DNA of 64,000 nucleotides from an uncultured Alphaproteobacteria bacterium (GCA_944391475.1 CALXTR010000003.1:50823-114822); one strand, 5' to 3'. Counted from the stretch's first letter, positions 2,578-30,748 are shown. Numbers and translations: made by a program. Notes: generated by a model from the letters alone, not told the origin.

Positions 2578-3450
2578 ATGACCAGCAGTATTTCAAGCAC
2601 TAGCAATGTAGATGAAAACGGCGTTGCCGGATGGGAAAAAAGCGTAACGGACGTTAACAATATTGATGAAAGCTTTGCCAATACCCGTGACCTTGGCTAT
2701 ACCCGTCTTAATTATTCACGTATCACCACCATTGCCCAACTTGGTGAATATAACGAACGAGATATATATAAAGTTCAAGTTCAATCTAATGGTAAATTAA
2801 GTATCAGCTTAAGAAATGAAGGCGTTGAAGAAAACGTATTGGATTTATCCGAATATGAGCAATATCTAGATGAACTCAAACAACAACTCGACCCCGAAGG
2901 ATATGCAGAAGAACAAGCAGCCCAAAAGGCCGAGCAAGAGGATTTAGATTTATTAGAAACCACCGCACCGGGGATGACCCTCAAAGTATATATGGTCAAA
3001 AACGGCAAAGAAGTATTAATTGCCGACAGCACTGCCGAAAAAGATTCGGAAGAGTACCAAAATATGTCTGCCATTTTGAGTGGAGACTATCGTGCCACCA
3101 AAGGAAATTATTATATTGAAGTCGGCAAAACTGAAGACGCCGACCCTAAGGCCGACCACCCCTATGCGATGCAAATTTTACAAGGCACCACCTACAAGCA
3201 TGATTACGTCATGACACAAAGTGATTCCGCCGATACCACCAATAAAGAAATATCGACCACCCAGGATACATCGCTTAATTCCACCACCGGAACTTCGGCT
3301 ATATCAGCAGCCTATGCTGCTCAAATTCAAGCTGTCCGCGATGAAGGAGCTGCCAATTTGCTGGCCTCTGGTGCTAGTAACCTATCATCACTTACTGCAG
3401 ATGATAGTAACAGCAATGCCACAGCCTTATTTTCAGCCTTATTGTCCTAA
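2578..3450 (+). CDS. Acidic hypothetical protein with a pre-peptidase C-terminal (PPC)-like domain and a Ser/Thr-rich tail
   Basis: RBS aaagga upstream. PPC-like pattern: ESFANTRDLG...IAQLGEYNERDIYKVQVQSNGKLSISL...GNYYIEVG. Acidic coiled linker and low-complexity S/T C-terminus. No signal peptide. Confidence 0.5.
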   Translation: MTSSISSTSNVDENGVAGWEKSVTDVNNIDESFANTRDLGYTRLNYSRITTIAQLGEYNERDIYKVQVQSNGKLSISLRNEGVEENVLDLSEYEQYLDELKQQLDPEGYAEEQAAQKAEQEDLDLLETTAPGMTLKVYMVKNGKEVLIADSTAEKDSEEYQNMSAILSGDYRATKGNYYIEVGKTEDADPKADHPYAMQILQGTTYKHDYVMTQSDSADTTNKEISTTQDTSLNSTTGTSAISAAYAAQIQAVRDEGAANLLASGASNLSSLTADDSNSNATALFSALLS

Positions 3451-6368: not shown

Positions 6369-6800
6369 ATGTCAAACCATTTTTGGGAAGAAAAAGATTT
6401 ATCCGACTTCACCGAGGAAGAATGGGAAGCAATCTGCATGAACTGCGGCAAATGCTGCCTCATCAAACTCCAAGATGAAGACAGTGAAGAAATTTACTAT
6501 ACCAAAATCACCTGCCGCTATTTTGATAAAGAGCACTGCAAATGTAGCGAATATCAAAACCGCTGCACTTTGGTTCCGGCTTGCCTAAAACTAACCAAAG
6601 CCAACTTGGGAAACATTCCCTGGATGCCCAAGACTTGCGCTTATCGCACTTTATATGAAAGCAAAACCCTTCCGGCCTGGCACCCTTTACTCACCGGCAA
6701 AAGAGATGAAAACCATAACATCAAAAACTTTTGTATTAACGAAAAAGAAATCAATCCAGACGATATTGAAGATCATATAATTGATTGGGACGAACTATGA
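6369..6800 (+). CDS. ycgN: UPF0260/YcgN family protein (Cys-rich)
   Basis: EEWEAICMNCGKCCL...PKTCAYR...LPAWHPLLTG matches the E. coli YcgN signature. Confidence 0.85.
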   Translation: MSNHFWEEKDLSDFTEEEWEAICMNCGKCCLIKLQDEDSEEIYYTKITCRYFDKEHCKCSEYQNRCTLVPACLKLTKANLGNIPWMPKTCAYRTLYESKTLPAWHPLLTGKRDENHNIKNFCINEKEINPDDIEDHIIDWDEL

Positions 6801-7303
6801 GTCAAAAATCACCTTCTTTTGCCACCGAACACGACCCTCAAAGCCGCTATGATGATTTGGAGCGCTTTGAACCCGAATTTTGGAAGAAAAAGAAACTTGA
6901 AGAAATGAGCAAAGAAGAATGGGAGCTGTTGTGTGACGGCTGTGGCAAATGCTGCCTTAATAAAATTGAAATTAAAGGCAAAATTAAATTTACCAATACC
7001 CGCTGCCGCTTTTTGAACTGCGATAACTGCCTTTGCCGCATTTACGACCACCGCTTTGAAGTTGTTCCCGATTGCCGCGACATTACCTTAGATGCAGTCC
7101 GCGAAAAACCTCGCTGGCTGCCTAAGACCTGCGCCTACTGGCTGTTAGATAACGGCTACGACTTGCCCGCTTGGCACCCCTTGATAACAAAGCGAGCCGA
7201 TTCCGTGCACCAAGCGCATATGTCACTTCAGGGCCGTGAGGTTATATCAGAAACCGAGGTAAAAAATTATGAAGATCACCTTATTGACTGGCCGGACCTT
7301 TGA
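6797..7303 (+). CDS. Second UPF0260/YcgN paralog; its ATG overlaps the stop of the first (ATGA)
   Basis: EEWELLCDGCGKCCLNK...PKTCAYW...LPAWHPLIT. The ATG at 6797 overlaps the upstream TGA. Confidence 0.8.
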   Translation: MSQKSPSFATEHDPQSRYDDLERFEPEFWKKKKLEEMSKEEWELLCDGCGKCCLNKIEIKGKIKFTNTRCRFLNCDNCLCRIYDHRFEVVPDCRDITLDAVREKPRWLPKTCAYWLLDNGYDLPAWHPLITKRADSVHQAHMSLQGREVISETEVKNYEDHLIDWPDL

Positions 7304-12457: not shown

Positions 12458-13219
12458 TTATTTTACAAATTTTTTATAAGCTTGTTTTCGTTCCGAACGG
12501 TTCATTGACCAAAGATTTCCCCAACCGTTAATCGGCTGCACTTCAAATTTAGATTGCAAATTAAAGTCCCGCCGCAAAAATAAACTCGTACATTTGGTAT
12601 AAGCATTCATCGGGCAAAAGCCATAAAAATCCACCTGAATAAGGTCAGCATTTTTGAGTACTTTCACCGCCTCACGATATTCTTGACTGGTATTAATACG
12701 GTCGCTGTCATCAAGAATAATCATTCCCCCGGGAGCTAGCTTGAGCACCGCCGTGCGCGCACACTCAGCACGACGCTTACCATCCACCACAATCACATCA
12801 TAAAGCTCTTCATCTTCCAGAATAGCATCTTCATAAATTTCGCCTTCTTCTCTCCAGCGTATATCCAGATTAGACTGCTTAAATTCTTGTTTCCAGCGAT
12901 TAAACCAAATCGGATTATCTTCCACACTCACCACCTTTTGAGCCCGCTCCGCCCAAAAAGGAGAAGAATATCCGCACCCAAATTCAAAAACTTTTCTATT
13001 GGCATAATCAAACTGCGAAATATATTCAATGGCCGGATAAGTGTACCAAGGAATTGGGTTACCGTCTTTATCCTGACAAAGTTTTTCATCAATTGAGCGC
13101 TCCAAACCAAAATCTTTTTGAAGCATCTCCACTGCTTTTAAAAATTTTTCGCTAAACAAAAACTCCTCCTCTTGAAAAGCCCTTTCTGAGCTATATATCA
13201 TAAACGAAAAAAATACCAA
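12458..13219 (-). CDS. Class I SAM-dependent methyltransferase (TylF/FkbM-like O-methyltransferase fold)
   Basis: Motif I VFEFGCGYSS, post-I acidic DVIVVDG, and LKPGGMIILDD. Confidence 0.65.
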   Translation of the reverse strand: MVFFSFMIYSSERAFQEEEFLFSEKFLKAVEMLQKDFGLERSIDEKLCQDKDGNPIPWYTYPAIEYISQFDYANRKVFEFGCGYSSPFWAERAQKVVSVEDNPIWFNRWKQEFKQSNLDIRWREEGEIYEDAILEDEELYDVIVVDGKRRAECARTAVLKLAPGGMIILDDSDRINTSQEYREAVKVLKNADLIQVDFYGFCPMNAYTKCTSLFLRRDFNLQSKFEVQPINGWGNLWSMNRSERKQAYKKFVK

Positions 13220-18305: not shown

Positions 18306-19610
18306 ATGAGCAACGCCAGACAAATCAGTGTAGAAATCATTTTTCAGATTCTCAATAACAAAGTTTTTTTCAGCGAGGCCAAAGCAGCGCTGAAAGTTGA
18401 AGAAAACGCCGAGATATCTTTTATCAATATGCTGGTTTTAACCACACTTCGCCGCCTCACCTTCATTAAAAAAGTTCTGTACCAATTTATAAAAAAAAGA
18501 GCCACCCCAAATTTACGCTTTGTTGATTGCGCTTTGTATGTTGCTGCCGCTGAAATGCTATTTTTAGAAACGCCGGATTACGCCGTAATTAACAGCTACG
18601 TTGAGCTCATCAAAAAGAAACAAGACAAATATGTTGCCAATTTTGCCAACGGTGTTTTAAGAAATCTCGCGCGTATAAAAGATAAGGTAATATGGTCAGT
18701 AACATCTGAATTTTTTCCACCCGAATTTATTAAAGTTCTCCAAGGATATACTCACGAACAGATTCGTCAAATTGAGGAATATTCAATCCAAGAAGCTCCG
18801 CTGGACTTAAGCTGCAAAAGTTTAGAACAAGCCAAACTATGGAGTTCTAAGCTTGACGGTACTTTATTGCCTAATAGCTCGATTCGCCTAGAAAACAACG
18901 GCAAAATTTCTGCCCTTCCCGGATACCGAGAAGGAGCTTGGTGGGTACAAGACTTTGCCGCCTCATTACCGGTTTTATCTTTAGGAAAAGTTGAGGGCTT
19001 GCAAGTACTAGACTTATGCGCCGCCCCCGGAGGCAAAACTGCCCAGCTTATCAGCTATGGCGCAAATACAACTGCTTTAGATATTTCCAAGAGCAGACTC
19101 CAGACCTTAAAAGAAAATCTGAAAAGGCTCAATTTGACCGCGCAAGAGATTATTTGTGCCGATGCATTAACATATCTTAAAGACTATGCAGGACCTCTTT
19201 TTGATATCATATTGCTTGATGCACCTTGCTCGGCCTCTGGCACACTTCGCCGCCACCCCGAGCTCATGCATATCAAAAACACTAAAGATATTAAAGAAGC
19301 CGCCAAACTACAACGACAATTACTTGATATGGCGGGCAATGCATTAAAAAAAGACGGCATATTGCTATATACCGTATGTTCAATCGCAAAAGCGGAAGGA
19401 GAAAAACAAATCCAAACTTTTCTTGAACAAAACTCTGACTACCGCTTACTGCCAATTAAGATTAATGACATTGATTTCAGTGGCACCAAGAGCCTATCAC
19501 TACTAATTAGCAAAGAAGGTTATATCCGCACTCTACCCTATTATTCCGGCCCACAAGGAGGCATGGATTCATTTTTTGTAGCCAAACTTCAAAAGGTAAA
19601 AAACTCATGA
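18306..19610 (+). CDS. rsmB: 16S rRNA m5C967 methyltransferase RsmB/Sun
   Basis: NusB-like N-terminus. SAM motif DLCAAPGGKT, catalytic DAPCS...TLRR and PC motifs. Confidence 0.9.
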   Translation: MSNARQISVEIIFQILNNKVFFSEAKAALKVEENAEISFINMLVLTTLRRLTFIKKVLYQFIKKRATPNLRFVDCALYVAAAEMLFLETPDYAVINSYVELIKKKQDKYVANFANGVLRNLARIKDKVIWSVTSEFFPPEFIKVLQGYTHEQIRQIEEYSIQEAPLDLSCKSLEQAKLWSSKLDGTLLPNSSIRLENNGKISALPGYREGAWWVQDFAASLPVLSLGKVEGLQVLDLCAAPGGKTAQLISYGANTTALDISKSRLQTLKENLKRLNLTAQEIICADALTYLKDYAGPLFDIILLDAPCSASGTLRRHPELMHIKNTKDIKEAAKLQRQLLDMAGNALKKDGILLYTVCSIAKAEGEKQIQTFLEQNSDYRLLPIKINDIDFSGTKSLSLLISKEGYIRTLPYYSGPQGGMDSFFVAKLQKVKNS

Positions 19611-20527
19611 GCGACACCAAAGACCACAACAACAACCAATCCCCCATTTATCTCTTAGGGGAAACTCCGCTGAGTATTTATTTAGCCTTTATTTTGGATT
19701 CTGCCGGCCAAAAACCACTAATCATCACCACTCCTCGGCCTGATACACCCGAGGTGGTTGATATTACTATCAAAGAAGCACAAAGCTTAAAAAAGCATAA
19801 ATTTAGCTATACTCGCAAAAGCTACACCTTTGAACCAGGGAAGCTGCTACTCATTACTTCACCGATTTCCAAGCTCAAATCAGAGCTGATGTTGCTTTCG
19901 CCCAAAAACTTAAGCTCCACCCCAAGTGTAATATTTTCCACTATAGAAAATGTTTCAATTGCCGAAACCTTACTGGGAAAATCTTTAATTCGGGGCTATG
20001 TTGACGGTTGGCTGCAAAACGGCAATCAAACCATTTCTCTACTAGGGGATAAACCCAAAATCAGCCTCGTTAAAAATTATTCCGTCTTAGAAGATTGTCT
20101 AGCAGTTTTGTCTTTGTTTAACCAAATTGAGCTTGACTGCCAGACCACAGAAAACAATAACCAAATTTTCTGGGAACATTTTGCAGTTGAGTTTTTAGGT
20201 TCAGTTCTTTCTGCCTCCACTCAACAAAATATTTATAACCTTATCAAAAGCAAAGATCGGCAACGCGAAATTGAAGCCTTTGCTGTCGAACTTGCCCAAT
20301 TGGCACAACACCAAAAAGCCGCTCTTGACCCCGCACAAATTAGCCAACAATTGCAAAATATCCCCATGCAATACTCTTTTCCTGCCCAGAAACTCGATTC
20401 GGAAGCCATCAGCGAACTCAACCACTATTACCGCTTTCTGATAAACCAAAGTTCTACAGCCAAGCTTCGCCTACCCAAACTTCGTTCTCTTATGAAAGAA
20501 ATATATTTTCGAATTAATTCATTTTAG
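19607..20527 (+). CDS. Hypothetical protein, possibly a degenerate ketopantoate-reductase (PanE/ApbA)-like Rossmann protein
   Basis: ATGA overlap with rsmB. N-terminus IYLLGETPLSIYLAFILDSAG resembles a GxGxxG dinucleotide fold in which the glycines are lost. There is loose C-terminal resemblance to PanE. Confidence 0.4.
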   Translation: MSDTKDHNNNQSPIYLLGETPLSIYLAFILDSAGQKPLIITTPRPDTPEVVDITIKEAQSLKKHKFSYTRKSYTFEPGKLLLITSPISKLKSELMLLSPKNLSSTPSVIFSTIENVSIAETLLGKSLIRGYVDGWLQNGNQTISLLGDKPKISLVKNYSVLEDCLAVLSLFNQIELDCQTTENNNQIFWEHFAVEFLGSVLSASTQQNIYNLIKSKDRQREIEAFAVELAQLAQHQKAALDPAQISQQLQNIPMQYSFPAQKLDSEAISELNHYYRFLINQSSTAKLRLPKLRSLMKEIYFRINSF

Positions 20528-20586
20528 CTTGAAGAAAAAAATAAAACCGCTAAACTAACCATAAGGCAACCAGTAGGGGAAACAGA

Positions 20587-21654
20587 ATGTATTCGGAAAA
20601 TCTTACCATTTATGCCGTTGCGGTCATGGCTTTCATTTTAAGTTTCGGCGGCTTTTATTATTTAAGCCTCCGCAACGAAGAATTAGCCCCTCGTAAAAAT
20701 GCACCTTTTGTAATTATTTTTCCGATTTTATCTCTGAGTTTTGCTTTTTTGTTTTACCAAATATCCAACCAACAAGATTTTATTTATAACCTATCTTGGG
20801 CAAACATTTTGTTGCCTTTACTTGGAAGTGCACTGATATATGTCAGTTGGCGTTTTGTGCGCTCTGCTCATATTGCAACCCTCATGATGTTTTTTTGCTC
20901 CGCCAGCGCCTATTTTTTTCAACCAGATGAGTTTTCAATTGCTTCCACAATTGCTCCATGGCTCAGCGGTTTACTTCTGTGCTTAGGACTATTTTTCTTT
21001 ACCTTTTTTTATCCCTACATTAGTGGGATAGATGGCATTTTAGGACTTCAAACCGCCAGTATCGGACTTGGGATTTTTGCTCTTTCGTTGCTTGGCGGTG
21101 TCCCTACTTTACTTGGTGGTTTCGGCCTAAGTTTAGGCGCCATTTTCTGTGCGTTTCTGATTTTTAATTGGTATCCGGCCAAACTAAGTTTAACCAAAGG
21201 CGGCGCACATGCGATTGGTTTTATTATCGGCTGGCTGATGCTTTGCGGCACATATGAAGGTAGTGGTCCGGCAGTTATTATTTTTGCGATGTTCTTTGTC
21301 GTAGAAATCTTAAGCGCTCTGCTCAAAAAAATGACCCTTCGCCCCGAATATGCCAATCTATCGGCCAACACCAACTGCTATGAGGCAAATTTATCTGGTT
21401 TTCCACCCTCATCAATTTCTGCCAACATCTTCCGCCTTTTGTTAATTTTGCTGATGATGGGCTGCTTTGAGCTCTATGCCCCTAATGCCTATACCATTCC
21501 GTTGTTTACCATGGTAGTTACCATCTGGTATCTCTCCAAAATAAAAAATTGGCAAACTTCCGGCAAGACCATTCGCGAGCTCAACCAAGATCTGATGATT
21601 GAGATTAAAAACAATCTTAACAATGTCAAAAATCAAATCAACAAGGAGAAATAG
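20587..21654 (+). CDS. Polytopic membrane protein, divergent glycosyltransferase family 4 (MraY/WecA-like), apparently missing catalytic motifs
   Basis: ISGIDGILGL resembles DGIDGL, and FNWYPAKLSLTKGGAHAIG corresponds to FNxxPAKxFMGDxGS with the GDxGS lost. About 10 TM segments. Confidence 0.45.
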   Translation: MYSENLTIYAVAVMAFILSFGGFYYLSLRNEELAPRKNAPFVIIFPILSLSFAFLFYQISNQQDFIYNLSWANILLPLLGSALIYVSWRFVRSAHIATLMMFFCSASAYFFQPDEFSIASTIAPWLSGLLLCLGLFFFTFFYPYISGIDGILGLQTASIGLGIFALSLLGGVPTLLGGFGLSLGAIFCAFLIFNWYPAKLSLTKGGAHAIGFIIGWLMLCGTYEGSGPAVIIFAMFFVVEILSALLKKMTLRPEYANLSANTNCYEANLSGFPPSSISANIFRLLLILLMMGCFELYAPNAYTIPLFTMVVTIWYLSKIKNWQTSGKTIRELNQDLMIEIKNNLNNVKNQINKEK

Positions 21655-21663
21655 ACCTCAACC

Positions 21664-23028
21664 ATGACCCCCATAAGCTGGCTGCAACAAAAAATTTCTA
21701 ATTTATCTCCCCGTAAGGAACCCCAATCCCTTACGGCAGCCGACCTTATAGACTTTAAAATCGTGGTAGTTGAATTTTTAGACAATGTTGAAAGCAACTG
21801 CGGAGAAATCATCACACGCCTTCTTGATAGCAAAGAAGGGCTATCGGCGACTTACTATGACGATCCCTTTCCCAAAACTTTCCTCAATTTGGAAAGCCGC
21901 ACCCTTTTTGACTTGATTGACCGTGGACAGTCAATAATTGAACGCAGCCGTGCCGATGTTTTGGTCTGGGGTTGCCGCGAAGGCAATAAAATCAGGCTAA
22001 ATTTTCAAACCGAACAACAATATGAAAATGAAGACCACGCCTTTGTATCTTTACTAGACAGCTTATATATCCCCGCTGCAATTTTCACCGCAGGTCAACC
22101 ATTACCACATGCCATTGGCAATTTGATTTATGGCGCCGTTATTAGTTCGATTAATACTTTTTCCAAAGAAAAGCAGATTCAAAAACGCTATTTACTCAAG
22201 AAGATAATCAACCAGTTATCAAAAGACGATTCTGCCAAAAGCCTCTCCATTGATTATCTCCCCTATATTATGAATTTTCTGGGAATTATCTATTTAAGCT
22301 ATAGTTATGACAACCATCAAGAAAAAGATTTCAAGATAGTTCGCAACTTGTTTGATACAGCATTAAAACACCAAGATTTAATCAAAAACCCCATTCATCT
22401 TGGTTGCATATATTACCATTTAGGCCAATTATACGATAGTGCCACCCAAAATATGGTTCATCGCCCCATGTCATATTATCGCGATGCCATCACCTTTTAT
22501 CGCCAAGCCCAAAAACATTTGAGCAAATATAATTACCCTTATGACTATGGGTACATTTCCTATAAACTTTCAGAATTGTTTTTTAATTATTGGAAACAAA
22601 AGAACGACATTCAGGCTCTGCGCGATGCCGTGTTCCAATTGCGCGAAAGCGAGAAAATCTACACCTATGCGCAATTTCCCGAATTTTGGTCAGAATTACA
22701 AGGCAGATTGGGCTATTTGTTGTCATTGCTCGGCAGTTTCACTAATAGTGAAGAAATTTGCGAATTAGCCATTGCCAGCTACAAAAACCAACAAAAAGTC
22801 ATTACCGAAAGACGAGATCCATTGGCTTGGGCACGTATCCAAGAAGACATCGGCGAAATTTATTACCGCTTGGGTAAAGAAGCCGCGGATAAAGATTTGC
22901 TGGAAGAAGCCTTAGAATATTTTCACGACGCTTTGTATATATTTGAAAACGCCGAAGACGAAGAAGAAGTAAAAAAACTTAATACGCATATCGCAAAAAC
23001 CAGCCAAATTTTATCTCTCAGCCGCTAG
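21664..23028 (+). CDS. Hypothetical TPR-like helical repeat protein (454 aa)
   Basis: Repeated aromatic-rich helical hairpin motifs (YYHLGQLYD, YYRDAITFYRQA, IYYRLGKEA). No enzymatic motif. Confidence 0.45.
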   Translation: MTPISWLQQKISNLSPRKEPQSLTAADLIDFKIVVVEFLDNVESNCGEIITRLLDSKEGLSATYYDDPFPKTFLNLESRTLFDLIDRGQSIIERSRADVLVWGCREGNKIRLNFQTEQQYENEDHAFVSLLDSLYIPAAIFTAGQPLPHAIGNLIYGAVISSINTFSKEKQIQKRYLLKKIINQLSKDDSAKSLSIDYLPYIMNFLGIIYLSYSYDNHQEKDFKIVRNLFDTALKHQDLIKNPIHLGCIYYHLGQLYDSATQNMVHRPMSYYRDAITFYRQAQKHLSKYNYPYDYGYISYKLSELFFNYWKQKNDIQALRDAVFQLRESEKIYTYAQFPEFWSELQGRLGYLLSLLGSFTNSEEICELAIASYKNQQKVITERRDPLAWARIQEDIGEIYYRLGKEAADKDLLEEALEYFHDALYIFENAEDEEEVKKLNTHIAKTSQILSLSR

Positions 23029-23063: not shown

Positions 23064-23357
23064 TTCTCCGTAAAATTGCTCTAGACGACCATTATACGAG
23101 CTTTAAGTAAAAGGTCGGATAGTGAGGAGAATAATAAGAAACCAGAAAAAATACGACTGAGTGTATAAAGACATACACGATTGGAGTATTTTTTCTGGCT
23201 TCTGTATTAGTCACCCGCTAGACGAGCTTAAAGTAAAAGTTCGGAGTTTTAGGTTAGTAGAGTAGTTTTTAGGGCGAGAAAAGCTTGAGCGTATATAGAA
23301 ATACGTGAGCTTTTCGAGACCCGCTAAAACTGCTCTAATAACCCAAAATACGAACTT
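23064..23357. repeat. Block of modular about 125 bp palindromic repeat units (standalone copy), directly abutting the lptG-like stop codon
   Basis: Shares ttctccgtaaaattgctctagacgaccattatacga, ctagacgagcttta, tattagtcacccgctagacgagc and the gagYgtatawagaaatacRYg hairpins with 30478-30748 and 44730-45016. Confidence 0.8.
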
Positions 23358-24464
23358 TTACCCGTCTTCCAAATGCAACAACACCGACACACTAATCATC
23401 GTGACAATCAAAGTCGGCGTCCACACCGCAAGCAAACCGGGAATATCCCCGTTCACCCCAAAAGCATAAATCAGCTGAGAGAGAAAATAGACCAAGAAAC
23501 CGGTAGAAATTCCCCCCACAATCAAATACATCACCCCTCCGCGCCGATTGTTAGGACGCAAAGCAAACACCGCTGCCACTAAAACCATCGCACACAGCAA
23601 GAAAGGAGATGCCAACAAAGACCAGTAACGGAGCTGATGCTTTTGAGCTGAAAAGCCTGATTTTTCATAAAAGCTGATAGTCCCAGGCAAATTCCAAAAC
23701 GAAATAGCTTCCGGCGGCACAAAATTTTCTTTGATTCTATCAATGGTCAGTTCAGTTTTATATTTAACATTGTTTGCGGTTTTAACCGGCTTTCCGGCCT
23801 CATAAATTTTGACATCGGCCAGCTCAAACATATTATTTTTAAGTGTTGCGGCAAAGGCCTGAATATTTTTGATTAGTTCGGAGTTTCGTCCTAGCTCCAA
23901 AATACTAACCCCATGCATCAGCAACACATTCTTATCTTGGCGAACTGATTTTGCCTGCAGCACCAAGAAACAATCTGCATCAATCGCCTCACGCAGCCAC
24001 AAGCCTTTTTCAGAAAAGAGCACCGCTTTAGGGTTACGGGTTTTGAAACGATAATCAAGTGTTTCATAAAGTTCATTCATCCGTGCGGCAATCGGATTAA
24101 TCACGGTGATATTGATTACCCCGATAATAAAGGTAGTCAAAAGCACCGGCGCCAAAAATCCCCAAATAGAAACTCCGGCAGCCCGAATAATCACAAATTC
24201 GTTACTTTTACTAACTTTCCAAAACGTAATCATTGCCGCAATCATCATCACAAACGGAAAGACCAGCTCAAGCGTTTTGGGCAGTTTGGTAATTGCCATT
24301 TCCATCACAAACCCAAAACCGGCATCATCACGTCCGGATGTTCGGCGCAGTAATTCCACCACTTCAAACAGCAAGACGATACCCATCACCATCATGAGCA
24401 CGCCAAAAAAGCTAAACAAGAGCTGCTTACTTAAATATTTTCCTAAAATCGACTTTGGGTTCAT
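23358..24464 (-). CDS. LPS export ABC permease, LptF/LptG family
   Basis: YjgP/YjgQ permease topology: six TM segments with a periplasmic beta-jellyroll insert. Whether it is LptF or LptG cannot be decided from sequence. Confidence 0.8.
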   Translation of the reverse strand: MNPKSILGKYLSKQLLFSFFGVLMMVMGIVLLFEVVELLRRTSGRDDAGFGFVMEMAITKLPKTLELVFPFVMMIAAMITFWKVSKSNEFVIIRAAGVSIWGFLAPVLLTTFIIGVINITVINPIAARMNELYETLDYRFKTRNPKAVLFSEKGLWLREAIDADCFLVLQAKSVRQDKNVLLMHGVSILELGRNSELIKNIQAFAATLKNNMFELADVKIYEAGKPVKTANNVKYKTELTIDRIKENFVPPEAISFWNLPGTISFYEKSGFSAQKHQLRYWSLLASPFLLCAMVLVAAVFALRPNNRRGGVMYLIVGGISTGFLVYFLSQLIYAFGVNGDIPGLLAVWTPTLIVTMISVSVLLHLEDG

Positions 24465-30477: not shown

Positions 30478-30748
30478 TCTAGACGAGCTTTAAGTAAAAG
30501 GTCGGATAGTGAGGGGAATAATAAGATTTCAGAGTGGCGGCGACTGAGTGTATAAAGAAATACACGGGTTCGAGCCGCCAGCTCGCAAAATCTGTATTAG
30601 TCACCCGCTAGACGAGCTTTAAAGTTCGGAGAATGAGTCGTATAGAGTAATTTCTAGGAGCGAAACAAACCCTAGCGTAGATAGACCTACGTGGGTTTGT
30701 TGAGTTCTCCGTAAAATTGCTCTATACGACCATTATACGAACTTTAAG
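30478..30748. repeat. Block of about 125 bp palindromic repeat units (module 1 tail), abutting the ftsH stop codon
   Basis: Units begin with ctagacgagcttta and contain the hairpins gtgtataaagaaatacac and cgtagatagacctacg. Ends with ccattatacgaactttaag. Confidence 0.8.

Follow-up and report, generated by a model that had tools for sequence, protein, structure and literature searches.

MraY, a member of the PNPT superfamily, is an essential and heavily studied antibiotic target whose gene normally lies in the dcw cell-wall cluster. In the LapB-YejM system, a tetratricopeptide repeat (TPR) adaptor is paired with a catalytically dead enzyme fold. Here we describe a four-gene run, rsmB-P1-P2-P3, carried on the plus strand (18306-23028) of a 64,000-nucleotide stretch of DNA (the window) from an uncultured Alphaproteobacteria bacterium (GCA_944391475.1, CALXTR010000003.1:50823-114822), in which P2, a membrane protein related to MraY, is encoded next to a TPR protein, P3, and behind P1, which has the fold of the ketopantoate reductase (KPR) PanE. 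Our best reading as a whole, to which we assign a probability of roughly 0.55, is that rsmB-P1-P2-P3 is a conserved, selected operon of a low-GC lineage of uncultured gut Alphaproteobacteria and encodes a non-catalytic inner-membrane module. An initial annotation of this DNA had recognised, after rsmB, two apparent pseudoenzymes and a TPR-like protein; the three open reading frames (ORFs) lie exactly where it had placed them, as does the ATGA overlap at 19607-19610 that joins the end of rsmB (19610) to the start of P1 (19607). The four genes are as follows.

18306..19610, plus strand: rsmB, encoding the 16S rRNA m5C967 methyltransferase, with which the conserved unit begins.
19607..20527, plus strand: P1, 306 aa, a PanE/ApbA (ketopantoate-reductase) fold, from its family profile, Foldseek and the ratio of nonsynonymous to synonymous substitution rates (dN/dS).
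20587..21654, plus strand: P2, 355 aa, an MraY-derived (Glycos_transf_4) membrane protein, from PF00953, MraY matches in the PDB and motif columns.
21664..23028, plus strand: P3, 454 aa, a predicted cytoplasmic protein, from homologue identity, dN/dS and a structural model.

Conservation of the unit in gut Alphaproteobacteria and beyond

Scanning a single genome for each species with P3 yielded 44 loci from uncultured gut Alphaproteobacteria (the gut clade), and the order rsmB-P1-P2-P3 is kept at all 44 gut-clade loci with enough flank. The ORFs are intact and of constant length in 40-42 species-level genomes (P1 293-322 aa, P2 350-361 aa, P3 447-456 aa); tblastn missed four P1 copies because of their divergence, and these were recognised by their ORFs. 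Relative to the window, median identity is 26% for P1, 31% for P2, 51% for rsmB and 65% for P3 (42 species), so that P3 ranks as the best conserved of the four, above rsmB. Pairwise Nei-Gojobori estimates of dN/dS range from 0.06 to 0.19 for P1, 0.05 to 0.22 for P2, 0.06 to 0.17 for rsmB and 0.006 to 0.047 for P3. P1, P2 and P3 are thus kept by purifying selection, and P3 is among the more constrained genes of the neighbourhood.

The junctions between the genes are conserved as well. The gap between rsmB and P1 has a median of 0 nt (10 nt or less in 37 of 39 genomes), and that between P2 and P3 a median of 1 nt (10 nt or less in 40 of 41 genomes, about -4 to +8 nt); P2 and P3 are translationally coupled through this start/stop junction. 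In the window, P3 starts 9 nt downstream of P2, with an AAGGAG within the P2 3′ end, and P2 starts 59 nt downstream of P1, preceded by a GGGGA Shine-Dalgarno-like box. The P1-P2 spacer (20528-20586 in the window) measures 60-122 nt, with a median of 75, in 40 genomes (loci L007-L050), and an internal promoter or other regulatory sequence serving the P2-P3 pair may lie within it. After control for rsmB, the distance matrices of P1, P2 and P3 are still correlated with one another (partial r 0.70 for P1-P2, 0.59 for P2-P3 and 0.53 for P1-P3), evidence of rate covariation that is weak because a single gene is a poor proxy for phylogeny.

Contigs identical or nearly identical to the window occur in the metagenome-assembled genome (MAG) GCA_949288025.1 and in several gut metagenome assemblies. 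The related genomes, which we take to belong to GTDB order RF32, are all titled as uncultured (Alpha)proteobacteria and come from the guts of humans, mice, deer and other hosts, the titles including 'Proteobacteria bacterium CAG:495' and 'Azospirillum sp.' UMGS bins. Local synteny around the unit (leuS-lptE-holA and DUF3576) is likewise well conserved in the gut clade. One contig labelled 'MAG: Lactobacillus sp.' (L042, JAISFX010000019.1) has the full alphaproteobacterial leuS / DUF3576 / rsmB-P1-P2-P3 arrangement and is probably mis-binned or mislabelled.

Beyond the gut clade, we assembled a distant set of 8 loci (six P3 clusters that were looked up and two Joint Genome Institute loci, the only 2 found by a metagenome scan with a 4-sequence P3 alignment and both with the same gene order), with GC contents of 31-42% (n = 8) and with P3 proteins 28-43% identical to that of the window at the six of the eight loci measured. 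A P2 homologue lies directly before P3 at all eight (hmmsearch E 1e-37 to 1e-89), and rsmB lies directly before the P2-P3 unit at all seven with upstream sequence. P1 is present at this one locus of the eight, L056 (4757-5929), where the homologue carries an 85-residue, highly acidic N-terminal extension followed by the same degenerate loop, G-D-N-A-L-A. The other neighbours vary at several distant loci: at L052 they are a methyltransferase and a ferritin gene, and at L051 (2514-8350) rsmB-P2-P3 directly follows rplU-rpmA-obg-rsfS, a ribosome-biogenesis gene string. At every related locus with enough flank rsmB is directly upstream of P1 or P2, and wherever flank is available P2 is never seen without P3, nor P3 without P2. 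Because the distant loci keep rsmB-P2-P3 and only L056 has P1, the conserved core is rsmB-P2-P3, with the P2-P3 pair at its centre, and P1 is a clade-specific addition that is dispensable in related lineages. The three-gene cluster of the initial annotation therefore holds as a linkage of P1, P2 and P3, with rsmB to be added to the conserved unit and P1 to be taken as optional.

P2 carries relics of MraY motifs and a degenerate active site

P2 matches Pfam Glycos_transf_4 (PF00953) with 35.4 bits (cut-off 27), a model pre-annotated on 10 of 14 database relatives, and in the PDB the P2 family profile finds MraY structures only (8g01, E 6e-5; 4j72, E 1e-3), which bears out the MraY-like, glycosyltransferase family 4 fold proposed at the outset. 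On the NCBIfam mraY equivalog model P2 scores just 16 bits against a cut-off of 192, and it is therefore not an MraY orthologue. Since only MraY structures and the mraY NCBIfam model were matched, MraY is the closer relative than WecA/GPT. On the same grounds an ancestry from WecA/GPT is disfavoured, not decisively; WecA-type enzymes also have an extra C-terminal transmembrane (TM) helix. The P2 features discussed below are these.

21022..21036, plus strand: P2 residues 146-150, SGIDG, relic of the MraY loop-C DGxDG motif (NxxDGxDG), aligned to NLTDGLDGL of MraY.
21163..21210, plus strand: P2 residues 193-208, FNWYPAKLSLTKGGAH, the remnant of FNxYPAQVFMGDVGS in MraY, Lys204 standing in for the catalytic Asp in the hidden Markov model (HMM) alignment.
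21490..21651, plus strand: P2 residues 302-355, extra TM11 and a basic, predicted cytoplasmic tail, from hydropathy and lysine plus arginine (K+R) counts, beyond the MraY alignment.

We compared motifs by HMM alignment to the E. coli and Aquifex MraY proteins and counted residues by column in 42 gut-clade orthologues. In loop C, where the family profile (llNGIDGi) aligns with NLTDGLDGL, the column of the first Asp (D193) is N in 36 of 42 and Ser in the window, and that of the second Asp (D196) reads D19 E9 P8 A3 C2 N1. In loop D, FNWYPAKLSLtkags of the profile aligns with FNxYPAQVFMGDVGS; the column of the GDxGS Asp (D265), residue 204 of P2, is Lys in the window and reads N11 D9 E5 Q4 T4 R3 S3 K2 P1 overall, and is thus unconstrained. 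Both motifs quoted by the initial annotation, SGIDG at 146-150 and FNWYPAK...LTKGGAH at 193-208 with Lys for the GDxGS Asp, are thus present. The DD motif (D117/D118 of Aquifex MraY) has no counterpart, there being no acidic pair at columns 78-92 in the 42 gut-clade orthologues; the columns aligned to it, 81 and 82, read A/S/T and G/A/L. In loop E, PIHHHYELKGWPE aligns with NTxYYQANLSGxPP, for which the MraY counterpart is PIHHHyELKGWPE, and the columns of the His cluster (HHH) read Y/C, Y/F and Q/K, HHH having become Y/Y/Q. Two conserved MraY glutamates, those of RQEF and VVE, correspond to E224 and E240 of P2.

In the distant orthologues these relics are eroded further, and differently by lineage. 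The loop-C motif is missing from seven of the eight, with LNKVYG, LSALPF or LNGMSA in its place; the FNWYPA position reads, for example, MSAAGK or LNALHE; and in a few, TM3 ends with a single D/E or with DE/EE. Such lineage-specific erosion is what one would expect to see had catalysis already disappeared in the common ancestor. The essential MraY residues are not all present in any P2 lineage; the ancestral catalytic motifs are lost, and P2 would no longer transfer phospho-sugar to polyprenyl phosphate.

Family-averaged hydropathy and K+R counts predict 11 TM helices, with the N terminus out and the C terminus in, where the initial annotation had 10. K+R are concentrated on loops homologous to the cytoplasmic loops of MraY, and the loops bearing D64 and YAPN have 0-0.5. 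Because the MraY alignment stops at about residue 295, TM11 (hydrophobic core 306-313) and the tail that follows it lie outside the aligned MraY region. The 42-residue tail contains on average 8.2 K+R, and given this topology TM11 and the tail would put a conserved amphipathic, basic segment in the cytoplasm. D64, E224 and W314 are invariant in 48 P2 sequences, and E240 is invariant or nearly so.

P3 combines a new alpha/beta domain with a TPR superhelix

P3 has 421 homologues, the top 120 of them at at least 62% identity, and when 1.84 billion representatives were searched exhaustively with a profile, about 25 more full-length P3 clusters (438-457 aa) came up, with nothing but generic multi-TPR proteins ranking lower. 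Matches of P3 to Pfam (TPR models) and to NCBIfam are sub-threshold only. Two regions can be told apart in the predicted structure.

21751..22086, plus strand: P3 residues about 30-141, N-terminal alpha/beta domain, from the secondary structure of the model (predicted local distance difference test, pLDDT, mostly 70-93).
22108..23022, plus strand: P3 residues 149-453, a TPR superhelix akin to those of LGN/Pins, Rap and kinesin light chain, from the predicted structure.

The N-terminal domain has no match in Pfam, and its profile finds nothing in the PDB below E 0.19. The remainder forms a superhelix of helical hairpins as expected of TPR proteins, so that the TPR-like nature first suggested for the third gene is supported for residues 149-453, and its description as all-helical fails for the alpha/beta domain. 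Nor is P3 a mere scaffold beside two decayed folds: it is the conserved core and by far the most conserved of the three proteins, with the invariant motifs NYPYDYG, LRDAVFQLREAEKIYT, FPEFW and YKNQQKV. The N-termini of P3 and P1 are not hydrophobic, and no signal peptide is therefore apparent for either.

P1 has the ketopantoate reductase fold and fails its catalytic tests

As a single sequence P1 reaches only sub-threshold similarity to Pfam ApbA_C (E 0.0036, 18.1 bits, cut-off 22.7), has no match to the Pfam ApbA N-terminal model and falls below the threshold of the family model TIGR00745 (18 bits, cut-off 141). A profile of the P1 family (38 sequences), however, matches the 2-dehydropantoate 2-reductase 3hwr with E 3.3e-15 (residues 19-298 against 21-300). 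An AlphaFold model built on a 19-sequence alignment (pLDDT 88.7) finds PanE and D-mandelate dehydrogenase structures by Foldseek (E about 1e-14, template modelling score 0.7-0.8, 11-16% identity); structures with the same two-domain KPR fold are 1yjq, 2ofp, 3hwr, 3hn2 and 4ol9, and the model superposes on the ketopantoate reductases of E. coli, Geobacter, Mycobacterium and Pseudomonas. These matches substantiate the PanE-like assignment of the initial annotation. Two sites of P1 deserve listing.

19658..19675, plus strand: P1 residues 18-23, GETPLS, replacing GxGxxG, aligned to GAGAVG of 3hwr.
20171..20179, plus strand: P1 residues 189-191, W-E-H, where KPR has its catalytic-Lys motif, W-x-K; FWehfavy is aligned to LWAKLILN of 3hwr.

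Of the three Gly of GxGxxG, only the first is invariant among orthologues (G18 in 41 of 41). The column of the second reads N13 T9 S8 D7 G3 C1 (N/T/S/D in 37, Gly kept in 3) and that of the third A20 S10 G9 T2 (Gly kept in 9), so that the loss of glycines noted at the outset is real. Column 191, equivalent to K176 of E. coli, reads N10 H8 A7 W5 Y5 F3 T2 S1, with Lys in none of the 41, and is unconstrained; an adjoining column has K in 7 orthologues. W189 is invariant. The equivalents of Asn180 and Asn184 are replaced (their columns read Y/R and S/A/Y), and that of Glu256 (column 270) is Glu in 23 of 41, including E270 of the window. P1 thus has the KPR fold and does not pass the catalytic tests that define the enzyme, because GxGxxG, the catalytic Lys and both substrate-site Asn are not kept. 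Taken together, proper alignment of P1 to PanE and of P2 to MraY upholds the loss of catalytic residues from both.

The surrounding sequence

The rsmB product has the ordinary NusB plus methyltransferase architecture (171 bits to Pfam Methyltr_RsmB-F, plus NusB) and matches NCBIfam RsmB at E 3e-80, yet under that model's curated cut-off. The remaining window is ordinary housekeeping (cysS, dnaB, yidC, leuS, lptE, holA, lptG, ftsH, addAB, ftsK, lptD, surA and ksgA among others). Rfam gave no structured RNA in the rsmB-P3 region, and a terminator consensus scan gave nothing convincing inside the cluster, plus-strand terminator-like matches within genes being weak 5-bp stems. Against the anti-phage defence models of PADLOC, P2 and P3 were unmatched and P1 reached only E 0.006 (13 bits) with an unrelated effector model; an identity as a defence system, which gains no support there, was rejected.

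The intergenic sequence after P3 (23029-23357) holds two direct copies of a unit of about 38 nt, at 23082-23119 and 23208-23245, with the core ACGAGCTT(T)AAGTAAAAG(G/T)TCGGA, of which a reverse-complement copy lies at 23345-23361, and an 18-bp inverted repeat (23137-23154 / 23186-23203). At 30483-30506 the 24-nt core recurs in a third exact copy, against 0 matches expected by chance. The repeat has no Rfam match and looks like a small dispersed element of the repetitive extragenic palindrome (REP) or miniature inverted-repeat transposable element (MITE) kind. Elsewhere in the window, ORFs at 49599-52640 (minus strand, 1013 aa) and 52801-54324 (plus strand, 507 aa) are both large and lack a Pfam match at E 1e-5 or better, and the 50-52 kb segment shows the window's most extreme GC skew (-0.275) and AT skew (-0.141). 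The same absence of Pfam matches at that threshold holds for ORFs at 2578-3450, 6785-7303 and 62654-63556 (plus strand) and 12458-13219 (minus strand), of 172-300 aa.

Interpretation of the module

Under the reading that we favour, P2 would be a descendant of MraY that is without the phospho-sugar transferase site, has gained TM11 leading into a cytoplasmic basic tail, and now serves as a non-catalytic inner-membrane scaffold, anchor or sensor. P3 would be its strongly constrained cytoplasmic partner, with a new alpha/beta domain and a peptide-enclosing TPR superhelix whose groove would most likely dock on the cytoplasmic loops or tail of P2 and recruit or regulate a client. P1, which has neither the catalytic Lys nor an intact loop for dinucleotide binding, would be an accessory subunit that joined in the gut clade, and all three proteins would work jointly at the inner membrane. 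One of the two explanations offered by the initial annotation, a repurposed non-enzymatic membrane complex, is consistent with strict co-occurrence, the start/stop coupling of P2 and P3 and correlated rates; the complex itself is putative.

Several points weigh against this reading. A physical complex of P2 and P3, with or without P1, is inferred, and the function of the module entirely so. About a third of the P2 orthologues (14 of 42) have D or E at the D265-equivalent column, and these, with the acidic residues at the end of TM3 in some distant orthologues, leave a small probability of residual or altered chemistry in P2. The most invariant residues of P2, D64 and E224, are predicted at the ends of periplasmic loops, opposite the face that would bind P3, and the key site of P2 may thus be periplasmic. 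Finally, neither a canonical mraY nor a canonical panE lies within the 64-kb window, and the missing mraY counts here too.

As to what the module does, MraY ancestry and the analogy to LapB-YejM led us to propose, as the likeliest role, the sensing or regulation of polyprenyl-phosphate-linked envelope-precursor synthesis, for example through MraY, which could run via retained lipid or nucleotide binding or via heterodimerisation with the dimeric MraY; we rate this role as doubtful at best. It accounts neither for the constant link to rsmB nor for the placing of two invariant residues, D64 and E224, on the periplasmic side. A fuller version, which we think unlikely, would make P2-P3 an undescribed envelope regulator, in which a dead MraY paralogue still binds lipid carrier or precursors, lipid-linked or nucleotide, or heterodimerises with MraY, and signals via P3 as its dedicated adaptor, co-expression with RsmB coupling cell-wall precursor flux to ribosome biogenesis or growth rate in these gut bacteria. 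Alternatively, the module might serve RsmB itself and have no envelope role, for example by tethering methylation of 16S rRNA, or 30S biogenesis in its late stages, to the membrane or by regulating either: rsmB is the one constant neighbour, even at distant loci where all others differ, it is start/stop-coupled to the next gene (median gap 0 nt), and at L051 the unit follows rplU-rpmA-obg-rsfS. Such a role has no known precedent, however, the architecture of RsmB is ordinary, and a shared operon often mirrors co-expression and not shared function; we consider it rather unlikely, and less likely than the envelope-precursor role.

The remaining explanations concern whether P1 and P2 are still enzymes and whether the genes belong together at all. 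P1 and P2 might retain re-wired active sites and form, with P3, a new glycolipid or envelope-modification pathway, P2 transferring another phospho-sugar via other acidic residues and P1 reducing a sugar or keto-acid, to give examples. The loops FNWYPA(R/K)L, NGI(D)G and NTxYYQANxSGLxP kept by gut-clade P2, the acidic residues at its D265 equivalent, the invariance or near-invariance of D64, E224 and E240, the Glu256 equivalent in 23 of 41 P1 orthologues, and the A or G in the third Gly column of 29 of 41, as in GxGxxA-type sites, would all fit. Yet no lineage has the full set of essential MraY residues, the DD pair is missing throughout the gut clade, the relic motifs were independently and almost completely lost in distant orthologues that still keep P3, the invariant acidic residues of P2 are on the predicted periplasmic side, far from the nucleotide-sugar site, and the catalytic Lys column of P1 is unconstrained, so that we find re-wired enzymes quite improbable. 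That P1, P2 and P3 are functionally unrelated and adjacent by inherited synteny is suggested by the order of leuS-lptE-holA and DUF3576, also well conserved in the gut clade, and is made highly improbable by the persistence of P2-P3 adjacency at 8 distant loci, several with rearranged flanks, by P2-P3 gaps that stay within -4 to +8 nt in all but one of 41 genomes, by rate covariation exceeding that explained by rsmB, and by the fact that P2 and P3 are never found apart where flank is available. Decay of P1 and P2 as enzyme genes of a reduced genome, with no function retained, was the other explanation of the initial annotation, and both the absence of catalytic residues and the fast divergence of P1 and P2 (median identities of 26% and 31% against 51% for rsmB) recommend it. 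We nevertheless reject genes mid-decay, as next to negligible in probability, because the ORFs are intact and of constant length in 40-42 species-level genomes and at the 8 distant loci and because dN/dS is as low as for rsmB in P1 and P2 (0.05-0.22) and extremely low in P3 (0.006-0.047); pseudogenisation is ruled out on these two counts, and the conserved start/stop coupling also speaks against decay.

Comparison with known systems

Literature searches found no paper describing a dead or non-catalytic bacterial MraY paralogue or an rsmB-P1-P2-P3 cluster. Pseudoenzymes and TPR adaptors are already known; what is new is a conserved pair of a dead MraY and a TPR protein tied to rsmB. Restriction of the module to one lineage limits its immediate impact. 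P3 represents a new, strongly constrained family, whose function is likely important to these abundant uncultured gut bacteria, and it differs from the TPR proteins LGN/Pins, the Rap phosphatases and kinesin light chain by its unmatched N-terminal alpha/beta domain and its own invariant motifs. P1 shares with PanE/ApbA and D-mandelate dehydrogenase (Pfam ApbA plus ApbA_C) the full-length two-domain fold and the Trp of W-x-K, and differs in having G-x-[NTSD]-x-L-[ASG] for GxGxxG, no catalytic Lys, and replacements of Asn180 and Asn184; about half of its orthologues have the Glu256 equivalent.

P2 resembles MraY in its significant PF00953 match, in the profile matches to MraY structures from E. 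coli and Aquifex, in loop relics that are collinear with MraY (NGIDG for loop C, FNWYPA for loop D, NTxYYQANxSGxP for loop E), in Glu residues equivalent to those of RQEF and VVE, and in the same alternation of cytoplasmic and periplasmic loops. It differs in that DD is missing, the Asp of GDxGS is not conserved and HHH and the first Asp of DGxDG are replaced, in that its N-terminal half is about 40 residues shorter and its C terminus has an extra TM helix and a basic cytoplasmic tail of 35-40 residues, and in that its gene follows rsmB and is coupled to a TPR gene. The likeness of P2-P3 to LapB (YciM)-YejM (PbgA), which controls lipopolysaccharide in Enterobacteria, is one of functional analogy and not of homology: the dead partner there has a sulfatase-like periplasmic domain, whereas P2 has an MraY-like polytopic core, and the link to FtsH and LpxC is not part of the evidence on P2-P3. 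A non-catalytic MraY paralogue has apparently been fixed under purifying selection across a whole uncultured lineage of gut Alphaproteobacteria, always with P3. P2 would then be a clean natural case of the transition from enzyme to scaffold in a polytopic membrane enzyme, its relic motifs decaying independently in each sub-lineage, and the module as a whole offers a testable hypothesis on how envelope-precursor synthesis is controlled.

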